DNA of 64,000 nucleotides from a virus (taxonomy: Duplodnaviria; Caudoviricetes), in the IMG/VR virus record IMGVR_UViG_3300025902_000014, positions 32,314 to 96,313 of that record; one strand, 5' to 3'. Numbering within the stretch: position 1 is the stretch's first letter; every line of letters begins with the position of its first letter. The notes below the pieces were generated by a model. It was given only the letters and a program-made list of their open reading frames with translations. It was not told the origin of the DNA and did no database searches. Positions 4,961-20,955 of the stretch are shown here, in pieces. Made by a program: the position numbers and the translations under genes.

Positions 4961-5047
4961 CACGAGGCCCTAGCCCGAGGCGAAGGGGACAAGTTCTCCC
5001 ACCCCCGGGTATCTATCTATCCTCGTATTTTTTCGGAGGTAACGACG

Positions 5048-5769: not shown

Positions 5770-7150
5770 AGCCCATGAGCTGGACTTCCTGCACTGGATG
5801 GTCTTCGGCACCCGGGCCGGGGTGGTGGGGGGTACCCCCATCACCTTCCCGTACCTCGAAAGCCGGATTCCCCATGCCTTCGATGATGCCGAGGTGGTCT
5901 CCCGGCTGGTCCTGAAGGCTGTCCGGATGGCCGGGCGGCTGACCCCGTGGGCGGCCCGGGGGCTGGTCTGGCTCTGCCGGAACCGTTCCCGGGACTTCCC
6001 GGCGGTCTTCCACTCCACGGTCAACTCGGCCGAGGAGCTGCTGGTCTTCGCCTCGACGTACTCCCGGTCCCACGCGCACTGGGGGAAGATGGCCAAGGAG
6101 CACATCGCCCAGTGGCTGGAGCTGAGGCTGGACGAGGTGGAGGTGGCGGCCCACCGGAAGTACCACCGTCGGCACCGGCACTCCCTCGCCGACCTCGTCC
6201 GGCTGGCCCACCCGACCTTCGGCGGCCGGAAGTCCTCGTCCGTGGACTGGCTCCTCGGCCGGTACACCCCGGGCCAGAACAGCTTCCTCGACCGGATGAG
6301 GTGGCTCTCGGACCCGGCCCTGCCCCGGGAACTCCGGCTGGAAGTCCTCGGGGAGACCCGTGTGCCCTCCCCGTTGGCCGAGATGGCTGCTGGATCGGAC
6401 CTCGACCTCTGGCACGCAGCGATTCCGAGCCTGTCGGTGGAGGCCCTCCTCGCGGGCTTTCCCCGGCGAGCCGGGCGGGAAGTGACTCAGCGGGCCGTGT
6501 TGGCCCGGCTGAGGGAGCTGGTCCCGCTCAACGTCCCCCGGCTCCTGCGGGCGGCGTGGAAGGTTCCCCGGGTGCCTGAGACCCTCCCCTTCCGGGAAGC
6601 CCTCGGGCAGCTCCTCTGGGAGGCCGCCAAGGCCATCCCGAGGCCCCCCGGGCGGACCCTCGTCCTCATCGACCGGTCTGCTTCCTGCCCCCCAGCGTTC
6701 TTCCGTGAGGCCCTCGCGGCGGCGGCCTTCGGCCCGTCCCGGCTCTATCTGGTAGACGATGTGGTCGAAGAAGCGTCCGGGCGGCCCATGGACCTGCTCC
6801 AGAATCTGGGGGCTTTCGCCCCCCGGGGCGGGTCCGGGCTCCACAAGCCCCTCCAGCTCACCCTCGCGTCCCGGGACTTCTACGACCGGATCGTGGTCTT
6901 CGCGAAGGGCTACCCCTTCCTGCTCCCCGAAGTTGGCCCGACCCTCGCGGCTCTGCTGGAACGATACCGGGAGAGCGTCAACCCTCACTGCCTCTGGACG
7001 TCGGTCGTCCCCGGCCCCCTCGATCGCATTCCCGGACTTCCCACCCACCGGGACCGTCTGGTCTTCGGGGCGGAGTGGGTTCAGCCCGTCCTGCCTTGGC
7101 TCCGGTCGGCGGAAGCCATCCTCTCGGAAAAGGAGAACGTGTCAAAATGA
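5750..7150 (+). CDS. TROVE/Ro60-like protein with vWA-like C-terminus (divergent)
   Basis: WGKMAKEHIAQWL, KYHRRHRHSLADLVRLAHP (Ro60-like motif), TLVLIDRSAS (vWA DxSxS), YDRIVVF. Confidence 0.65.
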   Translation: MTAIESEAHELDFLHWMVFGTRAGVVGGTPITFPYLESRIPHAFDDAEVVSRLVLKAVRMAGRLTPWAARGLVWLCRNRSRDFPAVFHSTVNSAEELLVFASTYSRSHAHWGKMAKEHIAQWLELRLDEVEVAAHRKYHRRHRHSLADLVRLAHPTFGGRKSSSVDWLLGRYTPGQNSFLDRMRWLSDPALPRELRLEVLGETRVPSPLAEMAAGSDLDLWHAAIPSLSVEALLAGFPRRAGREVTQRAVLARLRELVPLNVPRLLRAAWKVPRVPETLPFREALGQLLWEAAKAIPRPPGRTLVLIDRSASCPPAFFREALAAAAFGPSRLYLVDDVVEEASGRPMDLLQNLGAFAPRGGSGLHKPLQLTLASRDFYDRIVVFAKGYPFLLPEVGPTLAALLERYRESVNPHCLWTSVVPGPLDRIPGLPTHRDRLVFGAEWVQPVLPWLRSAEAILSEKENVSK

Positions 7151-7329
7151 CGTACTTTTTCGTGTTCCTCGCGATCGGCCTCATGGCCTCGGCCTACTCC
7201 ATCGGCTGGGTCATGGGGTTCAAGAAGGGGGCTACTCTCATGGAGGTCTCCGTGCTGTCCAAGCTGAAGAAGAATTACGGCGCGAACTTCGAGAACTCCG
7301 ATGGTCCCGGGAGCATCGAGTCCCCGTGA
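7147..7329 (+). CDS. small membrane protein
   Basis: AAGGAG SD; N-terminal TM segment. Confidence 0.6.
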   Translation: MTYFFVFLAIGLMASAYSIGWVMGFKKGATLMEVSVLSKLKKNYGANFENSDGPGSIESP

Positions 7330-7338
7330 CTATCGAGC

Positions 7339-7433
7339 GGAGGGTGTCTTCCTACCCTTGCCGCCGTGCCTCCCGGGGGGACAGGGACCGGTCCTCCTCC
7401 CGGTCCTGCGGGCAGGGAGACAGCCTCCTCTTT
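7339..7433 (+). ncRNA. candidate small structured RNA (Y-RNA-like architecture)
   Basis: 7339-7357 pairs with 7410-7428 at 17 of 19 positions; inner hairpin; ACTATC box just upstream; short T-rich tail. Confidence 0.45.
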
Positions 7434-7448
7434 CGCACCTGTTTGAGC

Positions 7449-7477
7449 TTGACAGTTTGAGCTTGAAGACATACACT
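7449..7477 (+). promoter_or_regulatory. sigma70-type promoter, leaderless
   Basis: TTGACA-17-TACACT, then 6 nt to ATG at 7484. Confidence 0.75.
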
Positions 7478-7483
7478 ACAGGC

Positions 7484-7801
7484 ATGAGAAAGCCCGACCT
7501 CTCCAAGGCCCCCCGGTCCTGCAAGCAGGTCACGAAGGCCCTGAACGTCCCGGGAGTGGACTTCTGGTACAACCCCCAGTACGGGTACTTCTACCTGAGC
7601 GGCGGGAAGGCCGGACAGCTCTTCTCCTCGACGGTCTTCGAGGGCGGGTTCACCCGTCTCGCGGACTACACCCTCGGGGAGTGGGTCGCCGAGTGCCAGC
7701 GGATGCTGGCGGAGGTTCCGGAGCCCGTGGAGTCCGGCGACGGAGCCATCAAGGTCTATCTAGCGGAGAAGACGTTCTTCACGGTCGAGGTGAAATCGTG
7801 A
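7484..7801 (+). CDS. hypothetical protein
   Basis: Starts at the predicted +1. Confidence 0.65.
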   Translation: MRKPDLSKAPRSCKQVTKALNVPGVDFWYNPQYGYFYLSGGKAGQLFSSTVFEGGFTRLADYTLGEWVAECQRMLAEVPEPVESGDGAIKVYLAEKTFFTVEVKS

Positions 7802-8094
7802 ACCGGTCCCGGACTCTCGGAACTGATAGCCCGGGGGGAGGGAAGGGGCAACCCTTGCAGGGGTCGGGCACGTTCTCGGGCCGCCGGAACTTTTTCCTCA
7901 CGATACGAGACATGGCTCTCGGCTACATGCTCGGGAAGCCGAACGTGGCGGCGGCCTACAGCTCCTCGAAGTGCGTCTGCGGGAGAAACTCCTTCAGACC
8001 GTTCGAGTTCGGCACCCAGAAGATCCTCGTCTGCACGAGGTGTGGACTCATGTTCATGGACAAGTTCAAGAACAGCGACCCCGTGCCGGGGTAA
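7798..8094 (+). CDS. hypothetical Zn-ribbon protein
   Basis: CVCG...CTRC; coupled ORF. Confidence 0.5.
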   Translation: MNRSRTLGTDSPGGGKGQPLQGSGTFSGRRNFFLTIRDMALGYMLGKPNVAAAYSSSKCVCGRNSFRPFEFGTQKILVCTRCGLMFMDKFKNSDPVPG

Positions 8095-8107
8095 GAAAGG
8101 ATGCGTC

Positions 8108-8395
8108 GTGGAAAAGAAGGAAGCTCTCCGTCGGCACTCGAAGAAGAGGATGCGCGAGCGGTTCGGAATCGCGGGGAACCACCGTGACTATGCTCGGATC
8201 GTCGAGGCCATCAGAACCCAGACAGCGAAGTTTATCGGCCGGGCGTCTCACCGGGTGTCAGTCTTCATGGTGGATTCCCAGACCGGGCCGATGAAGGTGC
8301 TGTACGACGGACGCCGGGGTGAGGTCATCACGGTGCTGACTCCGGACATGCACGTCACCGTCCGTCCAACCCGGAACGCGGAGGTGTCGGAATGA
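8108..8395 (+). CDS. small basic protein, possibly RelE/DUF4258-like fold
   Basis: HSKKRMRERFGI...EVITVL pattern. Confidence 0.5.
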   Translation: MEKKEALRRHSKKRMRERFGIAGNHRDYARIVEAIRTQTAKFIGRASHRVSVFMVDSQTGPMKVLYDGRRGEVITVLTPDMHVTVRPTRNAEVSE

Positions 8396-8739
8396 CCATC
8401 GTCGAGAAGTTCTCTCCCACGGTCGTGGAGGTGCTCGGGGTTCGGGCGGCCCGTTTCCTCGGATTCCTGAAGCCGTGTCTCCCGGTGCGCTCGATGTCGG
8501 AGCTGTCGTCCCTCGGGTACGACGAGGCGGCACAGCTCGCGAATTCCTTCTCGGTCCACCTCATGGACGCGGCGGTCTGCATCGAGGACCACGTCTTCAG
8601 CTCGACTAGGAATTCCACCTGCCCGAGGTGCGGGACGGCAGTCTGGTCCCACCTGACGGATCTGAAGGTCTACCCGGTCAACCCGTCCGAGCTGTGGGAC
8701 GAGGAGAAGAGGCTCCGTCGTGATTCTGCTTCCTCCTGA
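8392..8739 (+). CDS. hypothetical protein
   Basis: GGAGGT SD; coupled ORF. Confidence 0.6.
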   Translation: MTIVEKFSPTVVEVLGVRAARFLGFLKPCLPVRSMSELSSLGYDEAAQLANSFSVHLMDAAVCIEDHVFSSTRNSTCPRCGTAVWSHLTDLKVYPVNPSELWDEEKRLRRDSASS

Positions 8740-9301
8740 ACTTCCGAAGTTCAAGGGTTCGGTGCAGGTCTACGACTCCGGGCTGCGGGAGTTCGAGGAG
8801 ATCGCTCGGAAAGAGCCGTTCACCATCCTCTACTTGGAGGGGTACATCGGGTCGCCGATCATCTCGCTGGTCCTGCGCGGCCCGGTGACGATCACGGCGT
8901 ACTGCGGGGTGCCCCCGGACATGCTGTTGGCGGAGAGGTTCTCCGCCCCCTACGACGAGCTGAACAACTACATCGAGTCGGCCCACGGGGGTCTGACGTT
9001 CTCGGGCAAGCACGAGCTGGCCTTGGTGGAGTTCGCCCCGTTCATGAACTACCACTTCTGGGGCTGGGACTACGGGCACGCAGGGGACGCCACGATGTTG
9101 CGGTTTGATCTGGCCGACATGGCTAACCCCAAGCTGGCCTTCCTGTCTCACGGGAAGAAGTGGACCCTTCCGGAAGTGCTTTCGGAGACTCGGGAGGTGG
9201 CCATCGAGCTACACTCTTACGTCATGGGGGTCGAAGAGCTGGCGACGGATTCCCGGCACCGTCACCCCGGGATGCTCCCGAAGCTGGGAGGTGGCAGGTG
9301 A
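8720..9301 (+). CDS. hypothetical phage protein
   Basis: AHGGLTFS...WGWDYGHAGD motif. Confidence 0.65.
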   Translation: MILLPPELPKFKGSVQVYDSGLREFEEIARKEPFTILYLEGYIGSPIISLVLRGPVTITAYCGVPPDMLLAERFSAPYDELNNYIESAHGGLTFSGKHELALVEFAPFMNYHFWGWDYGHAGDATMLRFDLADMANPKLAFLSHGKKWTLPEVLSETREVAIELHSYVMGVEELATDSRHRHPGMLPKLGGGR

Positions 9302-9876
9302 TTCACGATCCGTTGGACGACCTGATCCGCAGAGACGACCTGATCCGCAGAAGCGCAGCGTGGGGGACGAAGAAGGTCGGGGAGGAGTTCGACCGGGCAC
9401 GGGACATCGTGCTCGGGAAGATCCCGCCCTCGCGTCCGACCGACCCGGAGAAGCACATGCGCGATTCCGTGGTGGCCATGATGGCTGCCATTGGATCGGC
9501 CAAGCCCCCCGACCTCTCCTCGGCCCGGATCAAGGATCTCAAGGCGAAGGTTCGCAAGGTCATCTCCGGGGCGGAGAAGGAACTTCCGGCCGAGCCGGAG
9601 GACTCTCCTGCCTTGAAGGTGGCCCGGGAGCTGAGGAAGAAGCTGGCCAAGAGTGCCCCGCCCTCTCGGCCCTCTGCCGGGCGCATCCTCGCTGGGGCGG
9701 AAGACGAGCCTCTGGGTGGACGTCCGCAGGTTCGGTCCCGGGCGCGGGACAAGGCGGAGGCGGCGGCCGAGGCCCGGATCTCCGAGGAGTTCACCGTGTC
9801 CGAGCAGCTCGGACCGCTCCGGAATTCCCTCTACAACGAGAGGTATCTTCGGGTGGAGATGCCTGTTGACTCCTGA
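9298..9876 (+). CDS. hypothetical protein
   Basis: GGAGGT SD; GTGA coupling. Confidence 0.55.
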   Translation: MIHDPLDDLIRRDDLIRRSAAWGTKKVGEEFDRARDIVLGKIPPSRPTDPEKHMRDSVVAMMAAIGSAKPPDLSSARIKDLKAKVRKVISGAEKELPAEPEDSPALKVARELRKKLAKSAPPSRPSAGRILAGAEDEPLGGRPQVRSRARDKAEAAAEARISEEFTVSEQLGPLRNSLYNERYLRVEMPVDS

Positions 9877-10306
9877 CCCGCAGCACCGCACGACCCTCGT
9901 TCTGGCCCGGGATTTCGGTGTCTCGTATTTCGTCGAGACTCCGTTTCTTCATGTTCATTACTGCTTCTTGGATTCGGAAGCTGAGGCTGTTGGGTACACG
10001 GCCCACGAGTTCTGCTGTCACCTCTGCGGGAAGTCCCTTCTCGTGTTTGCGGACTTCCGGAAGCTGGAGGACTCGGACGAGTTCGGGGTGTCGCATGAAG
10101 ACCAGATCCAGATGAGCTGGCTCTTCACCCGATTCTCCCGGGAGCATCAGCCTTGTCACATGACAGGCCCCCCGGGGCAGAGCCAGATGTACCGGGAGGT
10201 GTTCGAGGCCGCTCTGGACGCTGGAGACGACGACGTCTTCTGTTCTGAGACCCGAACCCAGAAGGCCACCCGCGATCTTCGGACGGTGGAGGTTCTCCCA
10301 CAGTAG
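9866..10306 (+). CDS. hypothetical protein
   Basis: Overlapping ORF; start uncertain. Confidence 0.45.
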   Translation: MTPDPQHRTTLVLARDFGVSYFVETPFLHVHYCFLDSEAEAVGYTAHEFCCHLCGKSLLVFADFRKLEDSDEFGVSHEDQIQMSWLFTRFSREHQPCHMTGPPGQSQMYREVFEAALDAGDDDVFCSETRTQKATRDLRTVEVLPQ

Positions 10307-10330
10307 ATTCATACAGGATCTTCCTCCGCC

Positions 10331-10336
10331 ACTATC
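10331..10336 (+). promoter_or_regulatory. candidate late promoter box ACTATC
   Basis: 15 nt before ATG 10352; same motif at a similar distance before 10 other genes. Confidence 0.55.
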
Positions 10337-10351
10337 GGGGGGAGGCTCTGC

Positions 10352-11326
10352 ATGAACACGGACTGGTTCAGCATCGTTCCGGAGAGCTACATGGATTCGC
10401 AGGGCGATCCGCAGGTGACTCCGTCTCTGCCTGCGCTCTCGGACTTCCGGCTGACGTGGTACGCCCCGGATCTTCCTGCCGTCGCGGCTCCTGTTCCGGT
10501 CCCGGCTGACGACCTCGTTCTGGAGTACGCCTCGGAAGCCATCAAGGCGTTCCGGGGGGACGATCCCGGGGACACCATCGTTCGGTTCCGGGGACTTCCG
10601 TTCTCCGCCACTCGGATGCTCCTACTGGTGGAGTGGGAGGTGGACAACGCCACCCCCCTCATCCCCCTGATCTCCGGGGCGACCGTCGGCGGGCAGTCGG
10701 AAGAGGTGAACGTCCTGTACGGGCTCCTCGCGGCCACCCCGGGCCTGACCCCGGTCCACTTCGACTTCCGGGAGGCTGGGTCGGGTGACCCGGTCGGCGG
10801 GGTCGAGATCACCGTCTGGGACGACACCCTCGACGTTCCCCTCATCCCCCTCCTGCGGACGACGGTCGGCGGCCGGGCCACCTGTGGGCTTCCCCCGGGG
10901 GCGTACAAGGTTTTCGCCTACAAGCCCTACTCGTCCTTCACGGATGAGTTCCCGGTGCCCCTGACGGTCGGGGCGGACGTGGTCACCCTGTCCATGACCC
11001 TCTCTCAGGCCCGCCCGGCCCTCCCGGTGGTTCCGAAGGTGACGGTCTTCGGCTGGGTGCTCCGGCCCGACTTCGTTCCCGTTCCGGAGGCGGAGGTCAA
11101 GCTCCGACTTCTCAACACCCCCCAGATGTCCAACGGGGGAGGCGGCCTCACCCGGTTCGAGATCACGGCGTTCACGGACGCCGAGGGGCGCTTCGAGCTG
11201 TACCCCATCGGGGGCATCACGGCTCTCCTGACGTGTGAGGCGACGGGGTACTCCCGGAAGGGTGCTCTCCCCCTCAGCGGTTCCCTGAACTGGAAAGATT
11301 TCGCGAAGGAAACGATCGGAGCATAG
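10352..11326 (+). CDS. putative virion protein with two carboxypeptidase-regulatory/Ig-like domains
   Basis: VGGVEITVW...LPPGAYKV and VPEAEVKL...TDAEGRFEL. Confidence 0.6.
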   Translation: MNTDWFSIVPESYMDSQGDPQVTPSLPALSDFRLTWYAPDLPAVAAPVPVPADDLVLEYASEAIKAFRGDDPGDTIVRFRGLPFSATRMLLLVEWEVDNATPLIPLISGATVGGQSEEVNVLYGLLAATPGLTPVHFDFREAGSGDPVGGVEITVWDDTLDVPLIPLLRTTVGGRATCGLPPGAYKVFAYKPYSSFTDEFPVPLTVGADVVTLSMTLSQARPALPVVPKVTVFGWVLRPDFVPVPEAEVKLRLLNTPQMSNGGGGLTRFEITAFTDAEGRFELYPIGGITALLTCEATGYSRKGALPLSGSLNWKDFAKETIGA

Positions 11327-11327
11327 G

Positions 11328-11702
11328 ATGAAGCATTTCGCAGATCAGTTGTTCGAGTCTCTGGACGAGGGGGTGGACCCCAAGTTCAAGTCCGATCTGG
11401 AAAACCTCAAGAGGTACTTGGTCGGGATGGTCGGACAGTTCCACGTTTCGGACTTCGCGGGAGAGTTCAAGCGTATGGGAGACGACGCTCATGCGTGCCT
11501 CGTCATGGCCGAGAAGCTCGAAAAGCATCCCGGGCGACTGCTTCCCGGCGACATCGTGGGGGGCGTGCAGGAGAAGGTCCACGTGGCGGCGGCGACGTAC
11601 GTCAAGCTCGGGGCCGAGATTCGCGAAGTGGACGCGCTCCTTCAGAAGATGAAGGCCAACCTCGCGAAGGCGGTCAACCGGCAGGAGACCACGGAGTCAT
11701 GA
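11328..11702 (+). CDS. leader-family protein (putative head cargo)
   Basis: N-terminus MKHFADQLFESLDE. Confidence 0.65.
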   Translation: MKHFADQLFESLDEGVDPKFKSDLENLKRYLVGMVGQFHVSDFAGEFKRMGDDAHACLVMAEKLEKHPGRLLPGDIVGGVQEKVHVAAATYVKLGAEIREVDALLQKMKANLAKAVNRQETTES

Positions 11703-12409
11703 AGTTCACCGAGGCTGAGCAGTTCCGCATCCAGTGCATCGTGGAGTCCCTCTTCGTCGAGGGGGTCTTCGACCCGGCGATCTTCAAGGCGTTCTTCATG
11801 GCCGGAGGTCCGGGGTCTGGGAAGTCCTTCGTTTCCCGGGCGGTCACGGGCGGCCATGGCCTCGTGACCGTCAACTCCGACACGGCGTTCGAGATCCTCC
11901 TCAAGAAGGCTGGGATGTCCCTGAAGCTCGACACCCTTGACCCGGCGGAGTACGGGGCCGTCCGGGCGCACGCAGGGGATCTGACGAAGGTGCGGCAGCA
12001 TCACTGGGTCAACGAGCGGCTGGGAATGGTCATCGACGGAACGGGGCGGGAAGCCTCGAAGATCGAGCATCAGAAGCACGCTCTCGAACAGCTCGGGTAC
12101 GACACGTACATGATCTTTGTGAACACCTCGCTGGAGGTGGCCCTCTCCCGGAACGCGCAGCGGGATCGCACTGTCCCGGAGCACGTCGTCCGGGAAGCGT
12201 GGCAGCACGTGCAGGACAACATCCCGGCTTTCCGGTCCATGTTCGGTGGGCACTTCTACGTAGTCGAGAACAACGGTCCCAATCAGGATCTTCTCGACCT
12301 CGCGTCGAAGTGGGTCCGCTCGCTCGTGAACACCCCGCCCCAGAACCCCATCGCCAAGAAGTGGATCGCCGACCGGGGAGGCACCGGGGCCATCGCCAAG
12401 TGGAGCTAG
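11699..12409 (+). CDS. P-loop kinase (zeta-toxin/AAA_33-like) with leader motif
   Basis: IVESLFVEG followed by FMAGGPGSGKS, VIDGTG, RNAQRDR. Confidence 0.8.
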   Translation: MKFTEAEQFRIQCIVESLFVEGVFDPAIFKAFFMAGGPGSGKSFVSRAVTGGHGLVTVNSDTAFEILLKKAGMSLKLDTLDPAEYGAVRAHAGDLTKVRQHHWVNERLGMVIDGTGREASKIEHQKHALEQLGYDTYMIFVNTSLEVALSRNAQRDRTVPEHVVREAWQHVQDNIPAFRSMFGGHFYVVENNGPNQDLLDLASKWVRSLVNTPPQNPIAKKWIADRGGTGAIAKWS

Positions 12410-12417
12410 GAGGAGAG

Positions 12418-12603
12418 ATGCCGTACGAAGTCCTGACCGTGTACCTCGACCTGTTCACCCGCGAGGGCTGCCTCGAATTCAAGCGGCTCTGCGAGGTCGA
12501 GGGTTGGCGGCTCCTGTGGCAGGAGCAGGTTCTGAGGAACGACGGGAAGACGGACTTCTCGTCCCACCTCGTCCACTTCCACCGTGGCGGAGAAGTGAAA
12601 TGA
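12418..12603 (+). CDS. hypothetical protein
   Basis: AGGAGGAG SD. Confidence 0.55.
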   Translation: MPYEVLTVYLDLFTREGCLEFKRLCEVEGWRLLWQEQVLRNDGKTDFSSHLVHFHRGGEVK

Positions 12604-12845
12604 AGATCACGACGAAGCTCGTCGAGTCCATCGTGGAGTTCGACCTGCCCGCTTTGACCCCCAAGCAGGAGCTGGAGAACCGGGTCCGGGACATCTTCCA
12701 CATTCATCGCGGGGAGATGACGGATCAGGACGTCAAGTGGCAGCTCAAGACGAAGGCCATGCGCGACGTTCTCGCGGCGCTGGTCAAGGACAAGATCGTG
12801 CTCAAGCGCGGGGGCAAGTACGTGTGGCCCGACATGCGGCACTGA
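12600..12845 (+). CDS. leader-family protein, winged-helix-like body
   Basis: MKITTKLVESIVE. Confidence 0.65.
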   Translation: MKITTKLVESIVEFDLPALTPKQELENRVRDIFHIHRGEMTDQDVKWQLKTKAMRDVLAALVKDKIVLKRGGKYVWPDMRH

Positions 12846-12855
12846 CATTTCTAGC

Positions 12856-12883
12856 TTGACAGTTTGAGACTTTCTGATAGAGT
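12856..12883 (+). promoter_or_regulatory. sigma70-type promoter, leaderless
   Basis: TTGACA-16-TAGAGT, then 6 nt to ATG at 12890. Confidence 0.65.
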
Positions 12884-12889
12884 AGAGCC

Positions 12890-13198
12890 ATGAGAGTGAA
12901 GACGAACCTGACCGAGAAGTTCCTCCCCGATCGCGGGGATCTCCACCCCATCGTTCACTCGAACGGGTCGGGCAAGGCGAACCTTCTCGCGTGGGCTGAG
13001 CACTGCGAGAGTGCTCTGGCGGACGCTCTCACGGCCCTGCACTACGCCGGGGCTCCCCACCAGCGTGACTACTACATCGAAGGCCCCGAGGCATGGAACA
13101 AGGCCAAGAAGGGGTTCGAGGACCGGGTCAAGGCTGTCGCCGAGGTCCACGACTTCTACAGGGATCTGATCGACTACCTGCACACGGTGAAAGGTTGA
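12890..13198 (+). CDS. leader-family protein
   Basis: MRVKTNLTE. Confidence 0.7.
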   Translation: MRVKTNLTEKFLPDRGDLHPIVHSNGSGKANLLAWAEHCESALADALTALHYAGAPHQRDYYIEGPEAWNKAKKGFEDRVKAVAEVHDFYRDLIDYLHTVKG

Positions 13199-13200
13199 CC

Positions 13201-13515
13201 ATGAAAATCAGGACGAACCTGACCGAGGCCCTCGTTGAGGGGCGCGATCTTCCAATCCGATACACCGTCAACCTGACCGCTCCGGGGATGCACTACACCC
13301 CGATGCAGTGGCGGACTCGGCCGCAGGGACAGATCCCGTCCTACGGTGCGCCGACTAACGCCAACCTCGCAAAGTTCATGGCCAAGTTCCTCGAAACCAT
13401 GAAGCCGGGTGGTCACAGCGCTCATCTGGGGGATAAGGGTATTCCTACCCGTGCGACCATCATGGACCACGACACGGGGCAGGTCGTCGCTTCGTGGATA
13501 AATCCGGAGCACTAA
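13201..13515 (+). CDS. leader-family protein
   Basis: MKIRTNLTEALVE. Confidence 0.7.
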   Translation: MKIRTNLTEALVEGRDLPIRYTVNLTAPGMHYTPMQWRTRPQGQIPSYGAPTNANLAKFMAKFLETMKPGGHSAHLGDKGIPTRATIMDHDTGQVVASWINPEH

Positions 13516-13516
13516 G

Positions 13517-13783
13517 ATGAAGGTCAAGACACGTCTCACCGAGGCGCTCACCGAGAGCAACCCGAACGACATGTTCGCCGGGCTCAGCAAGCCCTTCAAG
13601 GGGCTCAAGGCCGGGGACACGGTGTACTTCAAGCAGTACGCCGGGATGGGCCGGGGTGGCCCCGAGTACAGGACCGCCAAGGGCAAGGTGCTGAAGTACC
13701 TCGTCTTCCCCGACCACGTCATGGTCTCGGGGGGCTGGGCGGGTCAGCTCGTCAACGACGAGAACTTCATCAAGAAGGGCTGA
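13517..13783 (+). CDS. leader-family protein
   Basis: MKVKTRLTEALTE. Confidence 0.7.
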   Translation: MKVKTRLTEALTESNPNDMFAGLSKPFKGLKAGDTVYFKQYAGMGRGGPEYRTAKGKVLKYLVFPDHVMVSGGWAGQLVNDENFIKKG

Positions 13784-13785
13784 AC

Positions 13786-14121
13786 ATGAAGGTCACCACC
13801 CAGCTCGCCGAATCTCTCACCGAGGCCGAGGGAAAAGAGGTCTTCCCGCACACCTTGGTCCAGCCGATCGCCCAGCGTCTGGCATCGGCCGCGCCCCTCC
13901 CCGGCCAGCGGAACACGGCCGTGATGCCGCTCGTGGGGATGCTCAAGCCCGGCGGACAGTGGTACCGGGACATCCCGTGGACCGTGATCGAGGGTGTGGC
14001 GAAGAAGCTGGCCATGAAGGAGTACGCCGGGCCGGGGCAGAGCGTGTCCCTCGCTTTGGCGCTGGCGCGGATCTCCATGATCTGGCAGGACGTCTACCAC
14101 AAGTGGCAGAGCGGGGCGTAG
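13786..14121 (+). CDS. leader-family protein
   Basis: MKVTTQLAESLTE. Confidence 0.7.
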   Translation: MKVTTQLAESLTEAEGKEVFPHTLVQPIAQRLASAAPLPGQRNTAVMPLVGMLKPGGQWYRDIPWTVIEGVAKKLAMKEYAGPGQSVSLALALARISMIWQDVYHKWQSGA

Positions 14122-14131
14122 GAGGCCGGTG

Positions 14132-14443
14132 ATGCGCGTCTCGACCCGCCTGACTGAAACCCTCGTCGAGGCCGCCCCGATCGGGGGGAGCTTCCCGTCC
14201 CGGGTGCTCCACGACACGGAGCCCCTCGGGGGCAAGTACGTGCTGTTGGTTCTCTGGGACAAGGGCGACAAGGGAGCCTACGTCTTCGGCGGGCCGGACA
14301 TGATGGCCCACGCCGGGGGCAACGCACGCGCCGGGAACGCCCGGTCGATCGCCTACACGAAGAAGCTCCCGAAGCAGACCGTCGGGGAGTTCAAGGCCAA
14401 GCTCGCCGGATCGAAGTACGCCGGAGCGGAGGTTCACGCATGA
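14132..14443 (+). CDS. leader-family protein
   Basis: MRVSTRLTETLVE. Confidence 0.7.
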   Translation: MRVSTRLTETLVEAAPIGGSFPSRVLHDTEPLGGKYVLLVLWDKGDKGAYVFGGPDMMAHAGGNARAGNARSIAYTKKLPKQTVGEFKAKLAGSKYAGAEVHA

Positions 14444-14670
14444 AGGTCACGACGAACCTGACCGAGGCCCTGACTGAAGCTCCCCGGAAGTGGAAGCGGG
14501 GGCAGTCCGAGGTCTTCAAGGACAAGGGCATCGTGGTCCAGTGGCTCCCCGCGAATCAGGCATGGTTCGTCGGGTTCGGCCGCGACCCCCAGACCGCCAG
14601 CCGCCTCCGGGTCATCAGCGACCCGGTCGAGCTGGACGACTACCTCCGGGTGGACCTGAAGCTCTACTGA
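14440..14670 (+). CDS. leader-family protein
   Basis: MKVTTNLTEALTE. Confidence 0.7.
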   Translation: MKVTTNLTEALTEAPRKWKRGQSEVFKDKGIVVQWLPANQAWFVGFGRDPQTASRLRVISDPVELDDYLRVDLKLY

Positions 14671-14681
14671 GCTGACTCGCA

Positions 14682-14720
14682 AGTTCTAGATTGACAGGTC
14701 TAGAACTCTCGTGGTAGCCT
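14682..14720 (+). promoter_or_regulatory. sigma70-type promoter with a 9-bp inverted repeat flanking the -35
   Basis: AGTTCTAGA-TTGACAGG-TCTAGAACT; TTGACA-18-TAGCCT. Confidence 0.65.
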
Positions 14721-14742
14721 TCCCTTGGTTGGAGGTACCGAT

Positions 14743-15159
14743 ATGACGAACCCCAATGTTCTGGTGGCCACCCTGCTGGAGTCCGAAAAGCTCCTCGCGG
14801 CTCTCACGACTTCGGCCGAGGCAGTCGGCCTGAAGCTCTCCCCGAAGCTCGTCCCGAGGACCGACCTCGACGACGAGCACATCTCGGTGGACGAGAACAC
14901 CCTCGTGGACATCTACCCCGCCGGAGTCGAGGTCCGAACGCTCTCCGGAAGCATCCACGTTCCGGGCTACGTGGTCACGACGACCAACGTCATCCCGGCC
15001 TCCCGGTGGGTGCCCGAAGACGCCGACATCACGGACGAGATCGTCACCCGGAGCATCTCCGAGGCTGTCCACGTCGCCCTCGGATGCGTGCTCAACAGGC
15101 GACTCGAAGAGTTCATCATGGCGAGTTCGGAGGCAGGACTCGCTGAGGAGGGTGAATGA
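14743..15159 (+). CDS. hypothetical protein
   Basis: GGAGGT SD. Confidence 0.65.
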   Translation: MTNPNVLVATLLESEKLLAALTTSAEAVGLKLSPKLVPRTDLDDEHISVDENTLVDIYPAGVEVRTLSGSIHVPGYVVTTTNVIPASRWVPEDADITDEIVTRSISEAVHVALGCVLNRRLEEFIMASSEAGLAEEGE

Positions 15160-15200
15160 GGTACTGCTAGTCACCTCGCAGCACACACCCCAAGGATACG

Positions 15201-15231
15201 CAGGCCCCCCGTGAGGGGGGCTTGTCGTTTT
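15201..15231 (+). terminator. intrinsic terminator
   Basis: CAGGCCCCCC-GTGA-GGGGGGCTTG followed by a T run. Confidence 0.7.
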
Positions 15232-15235
15232 ATGC

Positions 15236-15304
15236 TTGACAGGATAAGCCTACTTCTGGTATCTTCTGGGTGTGGGCGAGACGCCCCGAAGAAAGCGAGA
15301 AACG
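15236..15304 (+). promoter_or_regulatory. sigma70-type promoter plus conserved 5' hairpin leader
   Basis: TTGACA-18-TATCTT; GTGGGC-loop-GCCCCGAAGAAAG starts at +1. Confidence 0.7.
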
Positions 15305-15307
15305 AAA

Positions 15308-15661
15308 ATGACCAAGCCCGCCGCCGCCCCCACGACCACGGTCCGGAACGCCACGACCTACAAGTACGAGGAGATCCCGGTGGTCGTCGGAATGGGCGTG
15401 ACCGAGTCCTGCGGCTCCGACGCCTACCCCTACGAGGTCATCGAGATCCGCACGGCGGGCAAGATCATCGTCCGCTCGATGAACGCGGAGAACGGCCCCG
15501 GTGGCCAGCCCTACTCCGGGATCGAGAACTGGATCATCACCTCGAACCCCGAGGGGCGGATCGAGACCCTCCGCAAGGGCAAGGACGGGCGCTGGAAGGC
15601 CGCCTGCGGCACCCGCTACTACGTCGGGCACGCCTCCCGCCACCACGACCCGCACTTCTAA
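15308..15661 (+). CDS. hypothetical phage protein
   Basis: VGMGVT...GSDAYPYEV...HHDPHF. Confidence 0.7.
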   Translation: MTKPAAAPTTTVRNATTYKYEEIPVVVGMGVTESCGSDAYPYEVIEIRTAGKIIVRSMNAENGPGGQPYSGIENWIITSNPEGRIETLRKGKDGRWKAACGTRYYVGHASRHHDPHF

Positions 15662-15686
15662 CCCCGGGCCTCCTCCGAGAAACTCT

Positions 15687-15717
15687 TCAAGCCCCCGCGA
15701 GGGGGCTTGACTGTTTT
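15687..15717 (+). terminator. intrinsic terminator overlapping the next -35
   Basis: TCAAGCCCCC-GCGA-GGGGGCTTGA-CTGTTTT. Confidence 0.65.
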
Positions 15718-15772
15718 AGCTTGTTCGTGCTAGATTACGGGTGTGGGCGAGAGAGCCCCGAAGAAAGCGAGA
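15707..15772 (+). promoter_or_regulatory. sigma70-type promoter plus conserved 5' hairpin leader
   Basis: TTGACT-18-TAGATT; GTGGGC...GCCCCGAAGAAAG. Confidence 0.7.
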
Positions 15773-15776
15773 CGCC

Positions 15777-16109
15777 ATGAAACTCCTCACCGCCGCCACG
15801 ACCAAAGCCTTCCAGAAGTTCCCGCTTCGCTCGCAGGAGGGCAAGTTCTTCGAGGCCAAGGTGGTCGCGAAGTTCTTCATGCCGTCCGGGCGCTTCACCT
15901 TCCTCGCCACGGAGGGGTCGCCCCTCCCGAACGGGGACTTCGAGTTCTTCGGGTTCTGCGTCTCCGCCCTCGGCTCGGACTGCGACGAGTGGGGCTACAC
16001 GACCCTCTCCCAGCTCAAGTCGGCCAAGGGGATGTTCGGGCTCGGGATGGAGCGAGACCTGAGCGTGGCCCCCGGGAAGCGCACCGCCGGTTCCCTCCTC
16101 GGGATCTAG
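15777..16109 (+). CDS. DUF2958-like protein
   Basis: VVAKFFMPSGRFTFLATE...FFGF...EWGYTTLSQL...MERDL. Confidence 0.7.
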   Translation: MKLLTAATTKAFQKFPLRSQEGKFFEAKVVAKFFMPSGRFTFLATEGSPLPNGDFEFFGFCVSALGSDCDEWGYTTLSQLKSAKGMFGLGMERDLSVAPGKRTAGSLLGI

Positions 16110-16123
16110 GAAGAAGGGATAAC

Positions 16124-16549
16124 ATGGGATACCTGACGAACGCCATTCGACTCGCTTCCCTCGCACACGCTGAGCAGGTCGATAAGGCCGGTCAACCGTA
16201 TGTGTTTCATGTGTTGAGGGTCATGCTCTCCCCGACGCTGACCACCGAGGCCGAGCGAATCGTCGCGGTCCTCCACGACCTCAAGGAAGATCAGATCCAC
16301 CTCTGGCCCGCCGTCGTCCGACAGTACGGCTGGAGCCCCGAGATCATGGCCGGGCTCGACGGGATCACGTGGCGGCCGGAAGAGACGTGGAAGGCGTACC
16401 TGATCCGGGCCAAGGCCAACCCGATCTCCCGGAAGGTCAAGCTCGCCGACATGACCGACAACCTCCGGGGGGTGCCGAACGCCACGAGGGTGGACGAGAG
16501 GCGCACCGAGAAGTACAGGAAGGGCATCAAGTTCCTGATGGCTGACTAA
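16124..16549 (+). CDS. HD-domain phosphohydrolase (SpoT/Mesh1-like single domain)
   Basis: AHAEQVDKAGQPYVFH...AVLHD...VKLADMTDN. Confidence 0.8.
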   Translation: MGYLTNAIRLASLAHAEQVDKAGQPYVFHVLRVMLSPTLTTEAERIVAVLHDLKEDQIHLWPAVVRQYGWSPEIMAGLDGITWRPEETWKAYLIRAKANPISRKVKLADMTDNLRGVPNATRVDERRTEKYRKGIKFLMAD

Positions 16550-16693
16550 CCGCCCACCCGGGTTCGGGGACGATGAAGCTGGCCGGGCATCCGGTCGGTG
16601 GAGAAACCGAGTCAAGCCCGGCGAAGGCCGCTGGAACGGCAGCACACCCGCCCGCCCGGTCCGTTCAACCGGCGGCATGTTGAGGAGGAAACC

Positions 16694-16948
16694 ATGGGGC
16701 TCTACGCGACGGAATGGGTGGTCCCGGGGACGGGGTCCACGAGACGGGAGCTGAAGGAAGCTCGGGAGCAGGCTCTCGGGACGAAGATCTCCCGGGATGA
16801 GTTCGACGACCGGAAGTCCCGGCTCCGGATCATCTCCCGGCCGGTCAAGGAGGACTTCGACCTCCTCCGGATCGAGGCCGCCCTGACCCAGTTCCCCGGG
16901 GATCTGGAAGAGTTCGGCCCTGAGAACGACGGTGAGGAGGACGTATGA
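16694..16948 (+). CDS. hypothetical protein
   Basis: GAGGAGG SD. Confidence 0.6.
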   Translation: MGLYATEWVVPGTGSTRRELKEAREQALGTKISRDEFDDRKSRLRIISRPVKEDFDLLRIEAALTQFPGDLEEFGPENDGEEDV

Positions 16949-17448
16949 AGCTGGCGAAGAAGAAGGCTCCGGTCAAGAAGAAGGTTCTGGTCAAGAAGGC
17001 CCCGGTCAAGAAGCCGAGCAAGGGGGTCTCGTTCACGGACTTCCCGACCCTCGGGGACATCATCACGCGGCTGGAAGTTCAAGCGATCAAGCTGCACGAG
17101 GCCGAGAAGAAACTCCGGCTCACCGAGGCGGCCCACCTCGCGTCTGTGGAACGGGAGAACGTCCTGACCCGGGATCTCGATACGGCCCGGGAGAAGGTGG
17201 CCGTCCTCGGGCGGGAAGTCCTCGACCTCAAGGCGTCCAAGACCCTGTTTCAGGCCCGGGTGAAGGAGCTGGAGAAGATCCGGAAGGTGACCGCCAAGGT
17301 TCCCGGGGTCAAGGCCCGGCTGGACATCCTCCTCGACGGGGACTTCCACCGGTACTTCCGGAACGTGGAGGCCGGGGGCAACAGCCTCCCCGACCTCACG
17401 ATCATCCTGAGAGAGCTTCAGAGCATCCGGGACGGCATCGCCGACTAG
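16945..17448 (+). CDS. coiled-coil protein with Lys-rich N-terminus
   Basis: KKAPVKK repeated twice, then heptads. Confidence 0.65.
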   Translation: MKLAKKKAPVKKKVLVKKAPVKKPSKGVSFTDFPTLGDIITRLEVQAIKLHEAEKKLRLTEAAHLASVERENVLTRDLDTAREKVAVLGREVLDLKASKTLFQARVKELEKIRKVTAKVPGVKARLDILLDGDFHRYFRNVEAGGNSLPDLTIILRELQSIRDGIAD

Positions 17449-17477
17449 GCTTTCCACTACCACACGGGATTCCAACC

Positions 17478-17499
17478 ACCCCCCGAAAGGGGGGTTTTT
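17478..17499 (+). terminator. intrinsic terminator
   Basis: ACCCCCC-GAAA-GGGGGGT-TTTT. Confidence 0.75.
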
Positions 17500-17568
17500 C
17501 GCGTTCATCCTCCTGAAAAACCAGCAGTTTTAGGCATGGCACTTCAAGAGGTTTCTCTATCGGGGTGC

Positions 17569-18207
17569 ATGAGTGCCCCGCACCTCATCTACGGCTTGGC
17601 AGATCCCGAAACCGGAAAGCTCCGGTATGTCGGGCAGACCCACCGTACGCTGGATGCCCGGCTCTACCACCACATCTGGGATGCCATTCACCACTCTCAC
17701 AAGAACCGCAAGGACGCTTGGATCTGCAACCTGACGGTGCGGGGCCTGCGTCCGAACATCGTACTTCTGGAGGAGACATCCTCATGGAAGACCCGTGAGA
17801 AGCACTGGATCGCCCAGTTCCCGGATCTCCTGAACTGCACCGAAGGCGGAGAGGGGATCGTCGGGTACAGGCACACCCCGGAAGCCCGGCAGAAGATCGC
17901 TGCGGCGAATCGGCTCAAGGCTGGGAAGAAGCGCACCGGGGAAGCTCTGGCCAACATCACTCGGGGCAACCTGAGTCGGCGGGGTCGGCCTCAGTCGGCG
18001 GAGACCATCGCGAAGAAGGTGGCGGCTCTTCGTGGGAAAAAGGCATCTCCTGAGCTGTGTGCGAAGCGGAAAGCCATGTGGGCTACTCCGGAACGCCGGG
18101 AGCAGGGCCGCCTGAACGCGCAGAAACGTTGGGATAGGGAAGAGGCCGAGTGGCGGGCTTCCTATCCAGAGTCATTCACCAGTCTGAGCACAACTCAGAC
18201 AAACTAG
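17569..18207 (+). mobile_element. GIY-YIG homing endonuclease with NUMOD3 repeats
   Basis: LIYGL...RYVGQT, REKHWI...LLNCTEGGEG, HTPEARQKI. Confidence 0.8.
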
Positions 18208-18221
18208 GAGGACTGTTCAAA

Positions 18222-18497
18222 ATGGCATCAATCGCCTTCGATATCCAGAACCTCGCCAAGAAGCTCGACCGGCTCGACGCCAAGGGGCCGACCTCGCGGA
18301 ATCTCCAGTCCGCGTGGGCCATGGCGCAGACCATCAACTCCCTTCTTCAGGCCACCAAGGCCGACGGCGCGGGGCACTACACCCTCTCGGAGGACTGGAC
18401 CGAGGCCACTCGGACCCCCTACGAGGCCGCCGTGGACGCCGCTCAGGTCGCTCTCACCGCCGCCCTCGCCCAGCTCAAGGTTCTCGTCAAGGCGTAA
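18222..18497 (+). CDS. hypothetical protein (head module)
   Basis: AGGAGG SD. Confidence 0.7.
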   Translation: MASIAFDIQNLAKKLDRLDAKGPTSRNLQSAWAMAQTINSLLQATKADGAGHYTLSEDWTEATRTPYEAAVDAAQVALTAALAQLKVLVKA

Positions 18498-18503
18498 CCT
18501 TCG

Positions 18504-18980
18504 ATGCTGAACCGGGTGACCCAAGTCTTCTCCCCGTTCGGGTCGGGGGGCTTTCTCAGGCAGATGGCCGAGGCTGCGCTTCGGAACGTCAAGGAGTTTG
18601 AACTCAAGGTCGGCTCCTCTGAGAAGAGCCCCTACGACTTCCCGGTGGAGAAGCTCGGGGATCTCATGCTGGTCAGCATCGACGAGGAAGGTACGGTCCT
18701 CCGGGCACGGACCGTCAAGAACTCTCCCGGGAAGGATTACCAGTGGGCGGGTCCATGCACCCCCAAGGCGAATCTGTTCCGTGTCCTGAAGTTCGTCGGG
18801 GATGACCCTCTCGACCGTCAGAAGTTTCTTGACTACGTCTACAACTTCCGGAACGTCCTGATCGACCTCAAGAAGGAAACCATCGTCGTCATCGACGAGA
18901 ACACGGCGGAAGCGTTGACGGTCACCAGCGGGGTTCAGGCTCCTCGGGTGGCCGCCATCATGACCGCACTGGGACAGTGA
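18504..18980 (+). CDS. hypothetical protein (head module)
   Basis: ORF coupled to the protease gene. Confidence 0.65.
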   Translation: MLNRVTQVFSPFGSGGFLRQMAEAALRNVKEFELKVGSSEKSPYDFPVEKLGDLMLVSIDEEGTVLRARTVKNSPGKDYQWAGPCTPKANLFRVLKFVGDDPLDRQKFLDYVYNFRNVLIDLKKETIVVIDENTAEALTVTSGVQAPRVAAIMTALGQ

Positions 18981-20923
18981 TGAGACTTCTCGAAGCATCT
19001 TACTTTGAGGGTTACGAGATCCTCGAAGGCTCGGGCGAGGGGGCCAAGCCCCTGATCGTGCGGGGTGTGTTCGGGCGGGCGAATGTCAAGAACGAGAACG
19101 GACGGATCTACCCGGACAGCGTCTGGAGGAAGGTTCTCTCTGAGAGTTCCGAGGCCATGGGACGAATCAAGTCCCGGAACTTCTTCAGCGAACTCGACCA
19201 CCCGGACGATGGCCGGACTCTTCTTCAGCGTGTGGCCGGACTGACCACGCGACTGGAGATGCGTCCCGACTGGGCCGTGTACGGTGAGGCGGAGATCCTC
19301 CCGACCCCGGCGGGGAAGATCCTCGAAGCCCTTTTCCGCTCGAAGGCCAAGATCGGCATCTCTTCGCGTGGGGAAGGGGATCTCCTGAAGACCGAGTCTG
19401 GTGACATCGTTCAGGAGAACTTTGAACTTCAGGCATTCGACTTCGTCCACAACCCCTCGACTCAGGGGGCCTATCCCAACCCCGTCTTCGAGCATCTTCT
19501 GGCCCGAAGGACAGGAGATCGAATGATGGATCTGATGGAAGAGTTCAAGGCACTGGAGAGGTCCGTCCTCGAACTCGTGAACCTGAAGCCCTCGGAGGTG
19601 TCCGCCGCCATGCGGCCCCTCGTCGAGCGTCAGGCGACCGAGACGATGGTCAAGCTCTCCAAGCTGTCCGAGTCGGCGGGGGACATGAAGCCCCTGTTCA
19701 TCGGACTTCTCTCCGAACTGAACACCGCTCGTCGTCCTTTCGTCCGTCTGGGCGAGAACGACGGCGGCAACTACCACCCGGGGCTCGTGGACAAGCTCCT
19801 CGCGGCGACCAACACGGCCAAGGCCGGTGAGGCCGGAAGCGTCGAGGCCCTCCCCGCGACGGTGGAACCCGACTCTCTCCCCCTCATCCCCGGCGCGGAC
19901 CCGAAGGCCGTGGGTGAGTCCAAGACCGAAAAGACCCGCAAGGAGGAAGCCAAGATGGCCGAGGCCGCGAAGAAGAATTCCATGAGCAAGGCCCTCCGGT
20001 CGGCGATCCGTGAAGCCGAGGACGAGCTGGATCAGATCGCCACCGACGAGAGCGAGGACGAGACCGCCCTCGCGGCACAGGAGGCGGCGCAGAAGTGCGA
20101 GTCCCGGCTCCTCAAGGCCGCCCGGAAGGTCATGGAGGGGGACGGCGCGAACCTCATGCCCGACTCCTACGAGCCCGCCGAGCCCAAGGGCGAGGAAGAG
20201 ATCGGCGAGTCCGAGGACGGTGACGAGGACGACGTCCCGACCCTCACGGCGTCCGACGACGACGAGAACCAGTTCGGCGAGGACGAGAACGGCCCGCCGC
20301 CCGAGATTCAGGCCAAGATCGACGCCAAGGAGTCCAAGCGCAGGCGGCCCTCCGCCCTCCGCCGGTTCTCCGAGAGCGACGACGACAGCATCGACATCCC
20401 GGCCCCTCCCAAGGAGGAGGCCGAGACCGAGCCCACGGACGACGACGGTCAGCCCCTCCCCCCGATGGAGGCGAAGATCGTCAAGACCTACCGCAAGCTC
20501 GTCCGCGAGAACCGCCGGATGCGCTACGAGGCGAGGGTCACCGAGGCCATCGCGGCCAAGGCCATCGCCAAGCTCACCCGCAGGGTCCGCGCCACCGAGG
20601 CGGCCCGCCCGTCCGCCCCGGCCTTCATCGTGGCCGGTGGCCAGAAGATCCCGGTCAAGGTGGCCGGGTCGGTCATCGAGTCCCTCGTCCGCCGCTACAA
20701 GGAGCTGAAGAAGACCTCCGGCGGCAAGGTCACGGAGTCCGCCGGTTCGCCCGACCCGGGCAGCATCTCCGAGGGTCCGTTCGGCGTTCCGTCGTTCGCC
20801 AAGGTGGGCAACGTCGCCCGCCTGAACGAGGCCGCCACGGCCGGACGCAAGACCGAGAAGTCGATCCTCGAAAGTCAGGCTGAGCTGGGTGCCCGCGTGG
20901 CCGCCCGGATCGGTCGGGTCTAA
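18977..20923 (+). CDS. prohead protease (T4 gp21-like) fused to an acidic scaffold/core domain
   Basis: NENGRIYP, ELDHP, ILPTPAG, GISSRGEG, FDFVHNPS; long acidic/coiled C-terminus; directly upstream of the capsid gene. Confidence 0.9.
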   Translation: MMRLLEASYFEGYEILEGSGEGAKPLIVRGVFGRANVKNENGRIYPDSVWRKVLSESSEAMGRIKSRNFFSELDHPDDGRTLLQRVAGLTTRLEMRPDWAVYGEAEILPTPAGKILEALFRSKAKIGISSRGEGDLLKTESGDIVQENFELQAFDFVHNPSTQGAYPNPVFEHLLARRTGDRMMDLMEEFKALERSVLELVNLKPSEVSAAMRPLVERQATETMVKLSKLSESAGDMKPLFIGLLSELNTARRPFVRLGENDGGNYHPGLVDKLLAATNTAKAGEAGSVEALPATVEPDSLPLIPGADPKAVGESKTEKTRKEEAKMAEAAKKNSMSKALRSAIREAEDELDQIATDESEDETALAAQEAAQKCESRLLKAARKVMEGDGANLMPDSYEPAEPKGEEEIGESEDGDEDDVPTLTASDDDENQFGEDENGPPPEIQAKIDAKESKRRRPSALRRFSESDDDSIDIPAPPKEEAETEPTDDDGQPLPPMEAKIVKTYRKLVRENRRMRYEARVTEAIAAKAIAKLTRRVRATEAARPSAPAFIVAGGQKIPVKVAGSVIESLVRRYKELKKTSGGKVTESAGSPDPGSISEGPFGVPSFAKVGNVARLNEAATAGRKTEKSILESQAELGARVAARIGRV

Positions 20924-20955
20924 CCGCAGAGCGAGAAGCGAAGGAGATCTGAAAG

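Follow-up and report, generated by a model that had tools for sequence, protein, structure and literature searches.

Tandem small genes with a common N-terminal leader as putative capsid cargo of an uncultured T4-type phage

Introduction

In bacteriophage T4 the prohead protease gp21 cleaves after L/I-x-E, and a propeptide of 10-19 residues is the sole feature common to the internal proteins (IPs). Capsid targeting sequences (CTS) of this kind bring the internal proteins into the prohead core and are then cleaved off (PMC9026906, PMC3012670, PMC12373910, PMC5694885). In the T4 genome record (NC_000866) the N-termini of ipII and ipIII read MKTYQEFIAE/A (the slash marks the cut), ipI carries its ...ITE/A at residue 19, and alt begins with MELITE/L. 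Here we analysed a window of 64,000 nucleotides, positions 32314-96313 of a 96.3-kb IMG/VR contig (IMGVR_UViG_3300025902_000014) that makes up about 67% of the genome, and in it a block of seven small genes, c1-c7, that have a short N-terminal leader in common. We propose that c1-c7 are capsid-cargo genes and that their leader is a lineage-specific targeting and cleavage peptide, as on T4 IPI-III and Alt; this is in our view probable, though well short of certain. Positions are those of the window unless another contig is named.

The locus resembles the system formed by T4 IPI-III and Alt, their CTS and gp21, in that small unrelated proteins have only an N-terminal propeptide in common, which in T4 is of the length given above and ends in L/I-x-E/A. 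As in T4, a gp21-family protease and a gp23-family capsid protein are encoded in the same genome, the genes lie in variable hotspots whose sets differ between relatives, as those of the IPs do, and the cleavage sites are duplicated (T4 IPII has IAE/A and then KLE/A). There are also clear differences. The leader described here, MK[VI]xTxLxExLxE, is unrelated in sequence to the MKTYQEFIAE of T4; there are about 18 members instead of four or five, seven of them in one tight tandem block; the protease is fused to a scaffold; the genome is of high GC; and the major capsid protein (MCP) is only about 28-37% identical to those of cultured relatives.

Two further systems are close. Giant phages of the phiKZ type (phiKZ, 201phi2-1, SPN3US) have some 8-19 head proteins with N-terminal propeptides that are removed by a gp21-related protease; in SPN3US, the first 15 residues of the paralogues gp53 and gp54 are the same and contain cleavage motifs (PMC5694885). 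Their proteases (gp175/gp245) cut at S/A-x-E and their propeptides are mostly longer than 100 residues, whereas the propeptide here is of T4 size and has L instead of S/A at P3. The other system is the shuffling at promoter-stem-loop (PeSL) elements in the hyperplastic regions of T4-like phages. As there, a variable block of small genes stands between conserved core genes and has a sigma-70-like promoter element repeated at its two ends (12849 and 14684), with composites of terminator and promoter at 15200-15265 and 15687-15736. Unlike in PeSL regions, the array holds no intergenic elements: its spacers are of 1-10 nt or are replaced by overlaps, and the only repeat is the leader coding sequence.

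Results

Seven adjacent genes share only their N-terminus

The contig has a GC content of about 63% and nearly all of its genes are on the plus strand. Between 12600 and 14670 we found seven adjacent plus-strand open reading frames (ORFs) of 76-111 aa:

c1, 12600-12845, plus strand, 81 aa, leader MKITTKLVESIVE
c2, 12890-13198, plus strand, 102 aa, leader MRVKTNLTE, with a single L-x-E site, the second E missing
c3, 13201-13515, plus strand, 104 aa, leader MKIRTNLTEALVE
c4, 13517-13783, plus strand, 88 aa, leader MKVKTRLTEALTE
c5, 13786-14121, plus strand, 111 aa, leader MKVTTQLAESLTE
c6, 14132-14443, plus strand, 103 aa, leader MRVSTRLTETLVE
c7, 14440-14670, plus strand, 76 aa, leader MKVTTNLTEALTE, start overlapping the c6 stop (ATGA)

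The genes are spaced by 1-10 nt, apart from the c6/c7 overlap and a 44-nt gap between c1 and c2 that contains a sigma-70-like promoter. Their common N-terminus is M-[KR]-[VI]-x-T-x-L-[TAV]-E-x-[LIF]-x-E (residues 1-13). An earlier note on this DNA had described seven consecutive ORFs of these lengths that share the N-terminal start alone, and we recovered them at the same positions; the 16-mer GACGAACCTGACCGAG that it placed at 12901, 13212 and 14451 is exact at all three. When each cassette in turn was held out of a position-weight scan of the 96-kb contig (leave-one-out; 3,258 candidate start sites), it ranked 1st-5th and was beaten solely by other leader-bearing genes, which shows that the similarity of the leaders is far above chance. 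The GC content at third codon positions (GC3) of the array genes is 0.76-0.94 and their bodies are conserved across strain variants; from both we conclude that the genes are real.

The bodies of the seven proteins are unrelated

Comparison of the bodies (residues 16 onward) by all-against-all BLASTP gave at best E = 0.2, and searches of Pfam, PHROGs and NCBIfam returned no family for c1-c7. Among 5.8 billion proteins, c4 was found only in clusters at at least 90% identity. Structural models of three bodies, made with AlphaFold2 (AF2) and compared with Foldseek for c1 and taken from the ESM Atlas for c2 and c7, belong to different fold classes. The AF2 model of c1 (pLDDT 76) has an unstructured stretch at residues 1-20 and a body of the order H-E-H-H-E-E (H, helix; E, strand); its top Foldseek matches in the PDB were all winged-helix domains, if weak ones (best E = 0.04), and as modelled the c1 body is a small winged-helix domain. 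The c2 model (pTM 0.63), whose structural neighbours align starting at residue 15-30, has a predicted helical hairpin or bundle as its body, and the c7 model (pTM 0.68) a predicted small alpha+beta fold. The AF2 model of c4 was unusable (pLDDT 39). In the models of c1, c2 and c7 the leader is unstructured and lies outside the folded body. The BLASTP result and the differing fold classes thus bear out the earlier description of a leader joined to an unrelated, variable body.

A block of this kind could also have arisen by tandem duplication, the seven genes being paralogues whose bodies diverged past recognition while the N-terminus remained constrained. All seven stand one behind the other on one strand and differ little in size, rapid divergence is usual for small phage proteins, and two short matches connect pairs of bodies. 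An exact 16-nt identity, CGGGGGCAAGTACGTG, which encodes GGKYV, is found at 12809-12824 and 14227-14242, within the bodies of c1 and c6, and GGKYV has just these two occurrences in the six frames of the contig; K-x-Y-A-G is found in c4 and c5 alone. These matches may be due to chance or be the trace of a past exchange. Against common descent stand the different fold classes (winged helix, helical hairpin, alpha+beta) and the body of a further leader-bearing gene at 39633, which belongs to PHROG 3308, a profile that begins past the leader. Moreover, the bodies are the conserved part between strains, and duplication leaves the retention of a pair of protease sites unexplained. On balance, we regard paralogy as unlikely.

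The leader has the form of a prohead-protease motif

Two genes of T4-type head machinery lie downstream of the array:

18977-20923, plus strand, prohead protease, 648 aa, Peptidase_S77 (T4 gp21 family), fused to an acidic scaffold-like tail
20956-22380, plus strand, MCP of the T4 gp23 type (Pfam Gp23 PF07068, 3.3e-58; match to T4 gp23 in the PDB, 2.7e-23)

The protease gene is 4.3 kb downstream of c7. The first 230 residues of its product are the Peptidase_S77 domain (Pfam PF03420, 5.5e-13; PHROG 207, 2e-41), in which H75, S129/S130 and D155 are invariant in 19 relatives, and its N-terminus reads MRLLE/A...EILE/G, with LIE and IVE at the same place in relatives. The MCP gene, about 6.3 kb downstream of the array and followed by sheath and baseplate genes, encodes the N-terminus M-x-E-[LI]-x-E-A. 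In addition, MCP L56-x-E58 is invariant in 15 capsid proteins (down to 48% identity; alignment A1) and, as in T4, is located in the segment that joins the N-terminal helix to the mature fold.

The leaders follow the same pattern. In 24 sequences, the seven array proteins and 17 strain variants, M1, T5, L7 and E9 are invariant (24/24) and E13 is present in 20, while positions 2, 3, 4, 6, 8, 10, 11 and 12 vary within small alphabets. The motif L7-x-E9 is consequently found in all 24 sequences and h11-x-E13 (h for the [LIF] position) in 20, with mostly A, S or G at P1'. The invariant residues thus fall on P3 and P1 of two L-x-E sites in tandem. The core motif has 29 matches in 26,438 coding residues, about 17 of which are within 14 residues of a start codon. 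Comparison with the T4 CTS (MKTYQEFIAE and the other NC_000866 N-termini) revealed no sequence homology beyond the M-K start and the h-x-E end, and from the sequences the resemblance would be one of functional analogy or of divergence too deep for homology to be demonstrable.

The leader might instead be a tag for other machinery unrelated to the capsid, such as a modifying enzyme of the kind that acts on ribosomally synthesized peptides (RiPP-like), a chaperone, a secretion route or a host factor. We consider this very unlikely, since the conserved residues fit a protease motif and the MCP and protease of the phage bear the same motif at their own N-termini. There is also no radical-SAM gene in the 96-kb contig, that is, in 67% of the genome. 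A secretion signal was rejected, the leader being acidic and polar, with neither a hydrophobic core nor twin-arginine character.

It could also be that targeting and cleavage are real but that the bodies are scaffold-like parts of the assembly core, degraded or expelled at maturation like T4 gp67 and gp68. Many leader genes do lie within the head/tail module, and T4 core proteins also bear L-x-E sites (PMC9026906). However, the bodies are folded, unrelated to one another, apparently variable in presence between strains and missing in close relatives, which is not expected of an essential scaffold, and they contain few internal L-x-E sites. A role in the core is therefore improbable in our assessment.

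Leaders of other types were observed in phages with related capsids. In IMGVR_UViG_3300035099_000047 (L031; MCP 43% identical), 15 ORFs at 1521-21074, within 21 kb of the capsid gene, start with MxxFEQAVxxLLxE, and two further contigs (L037 and L046) have three ORFs each with yet other common leaders. Each lineage seems to have its own leader tag.

The locus varies among relatives and apparently among strains

Megablast and blastn against 50,697 phage records gave no match, and neither did a scan of IMG/VR with the MCP as a single protein or a close-relative scan of IMG/VR with c4. A degenerate DNA pattern of the leader retrieved from IMG/VR an 11-kb high-GC contig with one leader-like ORF (L006) and four low-GC contigs; the latter contain no leader ORFs and were discarded as chance matches.

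The relatives do not preserve the array. The complete 141-kb genome G001, whose MCP is 64% identical, has a GC content of 48%, 15 points below the 63% found here. The homologues of g10352 and g18150 have about 0.8 kb between them in G001, compared with 6.8 kb in our contig. Four small genes in tandem at 43.8-45.3 kb start with MKVTTQ..., MKVKSELAEKLIES, (M)KITSKLAETLI and MKVRSRLPEALI; this leader set (four or five genes; C1:42303-45319, minus strand) is about 23 kb from the MCP gene. Across the whole of G001 leaders match ours, while the bodies of c1-c7 are found nowhere. In another relative (L070, MCP 76% identical), homing-endonuclease-like and other genes are found upstream of the head genes, and of the 18 leader proteins just one, that of 29995, has a homologue that could be detected. 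The GC content of this contig is 48%, against 63% here, a very large shift in composition for head genes so closely related. In a third (L009, MCP 49%), the kinase gene that lies upstream of c1 in our contig is kept and is followed by unrelated genes. Comparison with relatives therefore yields no fixed, syntenic array: G001 does not have this locus and carries a leader array of its own elsewhere.

Exact look-ups placed the same phage also on a contig of 144,067 bp. Strain variants, assigned from contig-length labels alone, were found of c1, c2 and c5 (71% identical) on an 89,669-bp contig and of the gene at 11328 and c2, c4, c6 and c7 on a 19,742-bp contig. Searches for c3 and c4, again judged by contig-length labels alone, found these contigs to be without a c3 or c4 homologue, which suggests that strain variants may lack c3 or c4 and that these two genes come and go.

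Differences between strains are concentrated in the leader: 46 of 238 leader positions are changed (19%) versus 50 of 1354 in the bodies (3.7%; Fisher p 2e-15, although the pairs are non-independent), so that leaders change about five times faster than bodies. Every strain replacement in c5 and c7 sits in the leader, and in the strain variants of c6 the leader is largely rewritten and the body nearly identical. Judging from the proteins, which alone cannot separate the two, either the non-anchor positions would be nearly neutral or leaders would be exchanged between cassettes.

Selection appears to act on the peptide

Where residues are identical between leaders, the same codon is used in 70 of 141 cases, and 75 are expected from the codon usage of the genome. 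The DNA of the leader is hence conserved no further than its peptide demands; in a GC-biased genome the 16-nt identity follows as a by-product. Copies of the leader DNA are 62-86% identical over 29-42 nt. The cassettes are flanked by no other repeat, and no intergenic repeats were found in the array. Homologues of c5 with body identities of 71% and 38% keep the leader, the latter starting with MRVATKLTESLTE, and so do c3 homologues at 64-67% identity, in the form (M/V)KVKTKLTEA(L/V)(T/V)E. From these sequences selection looks to be acting on the peptide, which has the appearance of a signal for targeting and for the protease. An RNA or translation element was rejected, synonymous sites being free in the codon comparison, and an Rfam scan of 11000-16000 found no RNA family.

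The earlier note had supposed that the leader DNA is a recombination handle. The architecture of a leader with unrelated bodies and the non-fixed locus remain from that idea, whereas conservation of the leader DNA as a handle does not agree with the codon counts. In its strong form, in which the leader is conserved mainly as a DNA homology for swapping, duplicating and deleting cassettes and the peptide is incidental, we find the explanation highly improbable. It has several points in its favour: the content and position of the array differ between relatives and apparently between strains, the excess of leader over body differences between strains could reflect gene conversion among leaders, an orphan ORF at 40008-40055 consists of a leader only, and a shuffling mechanism was proposed in 1994 for the palette of T-even IPs (cited in PMC4122927). 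Relaxed constraint at the non-anchor positions, however, would equally give faster leader change. Beyond the codon counts and the modest identity of the DNA copies, the anchor residues are invariant though the DNA drifts, and the leader survives a 15-point shift in GC.

A larger family of leader-bearing genes

When N-termini were clustered and all six frames scanned with a weight matrix, the family proved larger than the array. In all there are about 18 leader-bearing genes, mostly for small proteins and scattered through the head/tail module. The seven genes to which the earlier note confined itself do exist, but they are not the whole family, as about 11 further genes with the same or a sister leader are found at 11328-12409 and 24618-40688:

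11328-11702, plus strand, gene of 124 aa, sister leader MKHFADQLFESLDEG, directly upstream of the array; kept in variant P0152
11699-12409, plus strand, kinase of 236 aa, Zeta-toxin/AAA_33 type; N-terminus holds IVESLFVEG, leader-like IVESLFVEGVFD
24618-24944, plus strand, leader gene, MRIAEQIVSALLQE
24946-25314, plus strand, leader gene with a TTG start, MRVRTRLTEALLGE
26610-26858, plus strand, leader gene, 82 aa, MKIRSMLVGSLLED
27784, candidate leader gene, a possible member
29995-30366, plus strand, leader gene, MDQKPEAIVESLLGE; homologue 43% identical and with leader in L070
30664-31014, plus strand, leader gene, MRIAEQLAQSLTE
31011-31280, plus strand, leader gene, MRIAEQLAEALTE
37179-37967, plus strand, protein of 262 aa starting with MGPGEVTRITEALLDE
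39633-39998, plus strand, leader gene, MRVTTKLIEAILRE; the PHROG 3308 match mentioned above
40008-40055, orphan leader-only ORF of 15 codons, MKVTTKLTSKPDYPS followed by a stop, with a good ribosome-binding site and between two leader genes
40066-40416 and 40413-40688, plus strand, leader genes

The kinase at 11699-12409 also matches PHROG 16619, 'minor head protein', and its homologue in L009 keeps FVDTLLLEG; by analogy with Alt in T4, it may be a packaged enzyme. The orphan ORF looks like what is left of a cassette after its loss or a frameshift. Leader-like motifs (RIVEALLTE, VVESVTESLLEE and MRLSEQIAEALLSE) are also present at 38186, 38540 and 38841, in or at the end of the ORF 37904-38839, spaced by about 100-118 residues as though cassettes had been fused in frame. 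Between the kinase gene and c1 lies a gene of 61 aa without leader (12420-12603, MPYEVLTVYLDLF...), the stop of which overlaps the c1 start (ATGA).

Promoters and flanking elements

Two promoter sites of one family stand on either side of c2-c7:

12856-12883, plus strand, sigma-70-like promoter (TTGACA, 16 nt, TAGAGT), before c2
14691-14720, plus strand, promoter-like site of the same family (TTCTAGATTGACAG...), after c7, the downstream bound of the array

Their positions make c2-c7 one promoter-to-promoter unit. About 17 sigma-70-like promoters were found on the plus strand of the contig, with the extended consensus TTGACAGTTYRAGCTTG...TA...T and in structural and accessory regions alike (in the window, for example, at 1706, 7449, 12856, 14691, 15707, 23830, 40685 and 41057). 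Just downstream of the array, single small genes are bracketed by GC-rich terminator hairpins (15200-15265 and 15687-15736), each with a TTGACA-type promoter directly behind it; these composites are like the PeSL elements of T4-like hyperplastic regions. The T4 late-promoter motif TATAAATA is absent from the window, which is uninformative.

Discussion

We favour, with moderate confidence, the reading of c1-c7 as cargo of the capsid. The leader would be a short unstructured propeptide, the lineage-specific equivalent of the T4 CTS. Its first residues, M-K/R-V/I-x-T, would recruit the protein to the assembling prohead core, where the gp21-type protease would cut at the tandem motifs L7-x-E9 and h11-x-E13 and so free, within the capsid, a mature body some 60-100 residues long. 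At infection the bodies would probably exit together with the DNA, to act in the host at an early stage. T4 IPI-III inhibit type IV restriction enzymes, and by analogy the bodies may counter host defences. The array is situated in a plastic region with conserved head genes to either side; cassettes would be gained, lost and replaced there, and the peptide tag would make any new body packageable. If the leader is such a tag, the seven tandem genes form a block of interchangeable capsid cargo.

What we observed is the motif itself with its strict N-terminal position and pattern of conservation, the families of the protease and the capsid protein, bodies that are unrelated, and variation between relatives. 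In favour of packaging and cleavage we count the T4-type head machinery, the L-x-E anchors, the N-terminal enrichment, the unstructured leader, selection at the level of the peptide and the L-x-E logic of the head proteins themselves. To these we add the h-x-E leaders that other lineages with the same capsid type have of their own, and the leader-bearing kinase that matches a PHROG of minor head proteins.

Several points weigh against this reading. The nearest isolates have at most 37% MCP identity, and cleavage, packaging and ejection, like targeting and the function of the bodies, are inferred. The leader has no homology to the T4 CTS apart from its two ends, and L-x-E is a motif of low information. 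The promoter family that serves c2-c7 also serves presumed early genes, which bears on timing relative to head assembly. Finally, 18 cargo species far exceed the handful of T4, though phiKZ-like phages process about 19.

It is conceivable, if rather unlikely, that the leader does double duty, serving both as packaging and cleavage tag and as the point at which leaders and bodies are rejoined by gene conversion or short-homology recombination. Such a process would have left as its traces the orphan at 40008, the units fused in frame at 37179-38839 and the five-fold excess of leader over body change between strains. If this were true, the array would be an integrase-free, self-expanding set of cargo in which any body that came to lie behind a leader would at once be packageable.

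In its favoured form, the proposal of leader-tagged capsid cargo extends a known T4 principle to a new lineage and introduces no new principle. The strain data provide a clean example of a short linear motif, with anchors that are frozen and positions between them that change faster than the attached domain. Metagenomes could be searched for such cargo with the leader as the key, and phages of this lineage might be engineered with it as a packaging tag. Above all, c1-c7 and their roughly 11 relatives would constitute a list of the proteins that an uncultured high-GC T4-type phage delivers into its host together with its DNA.

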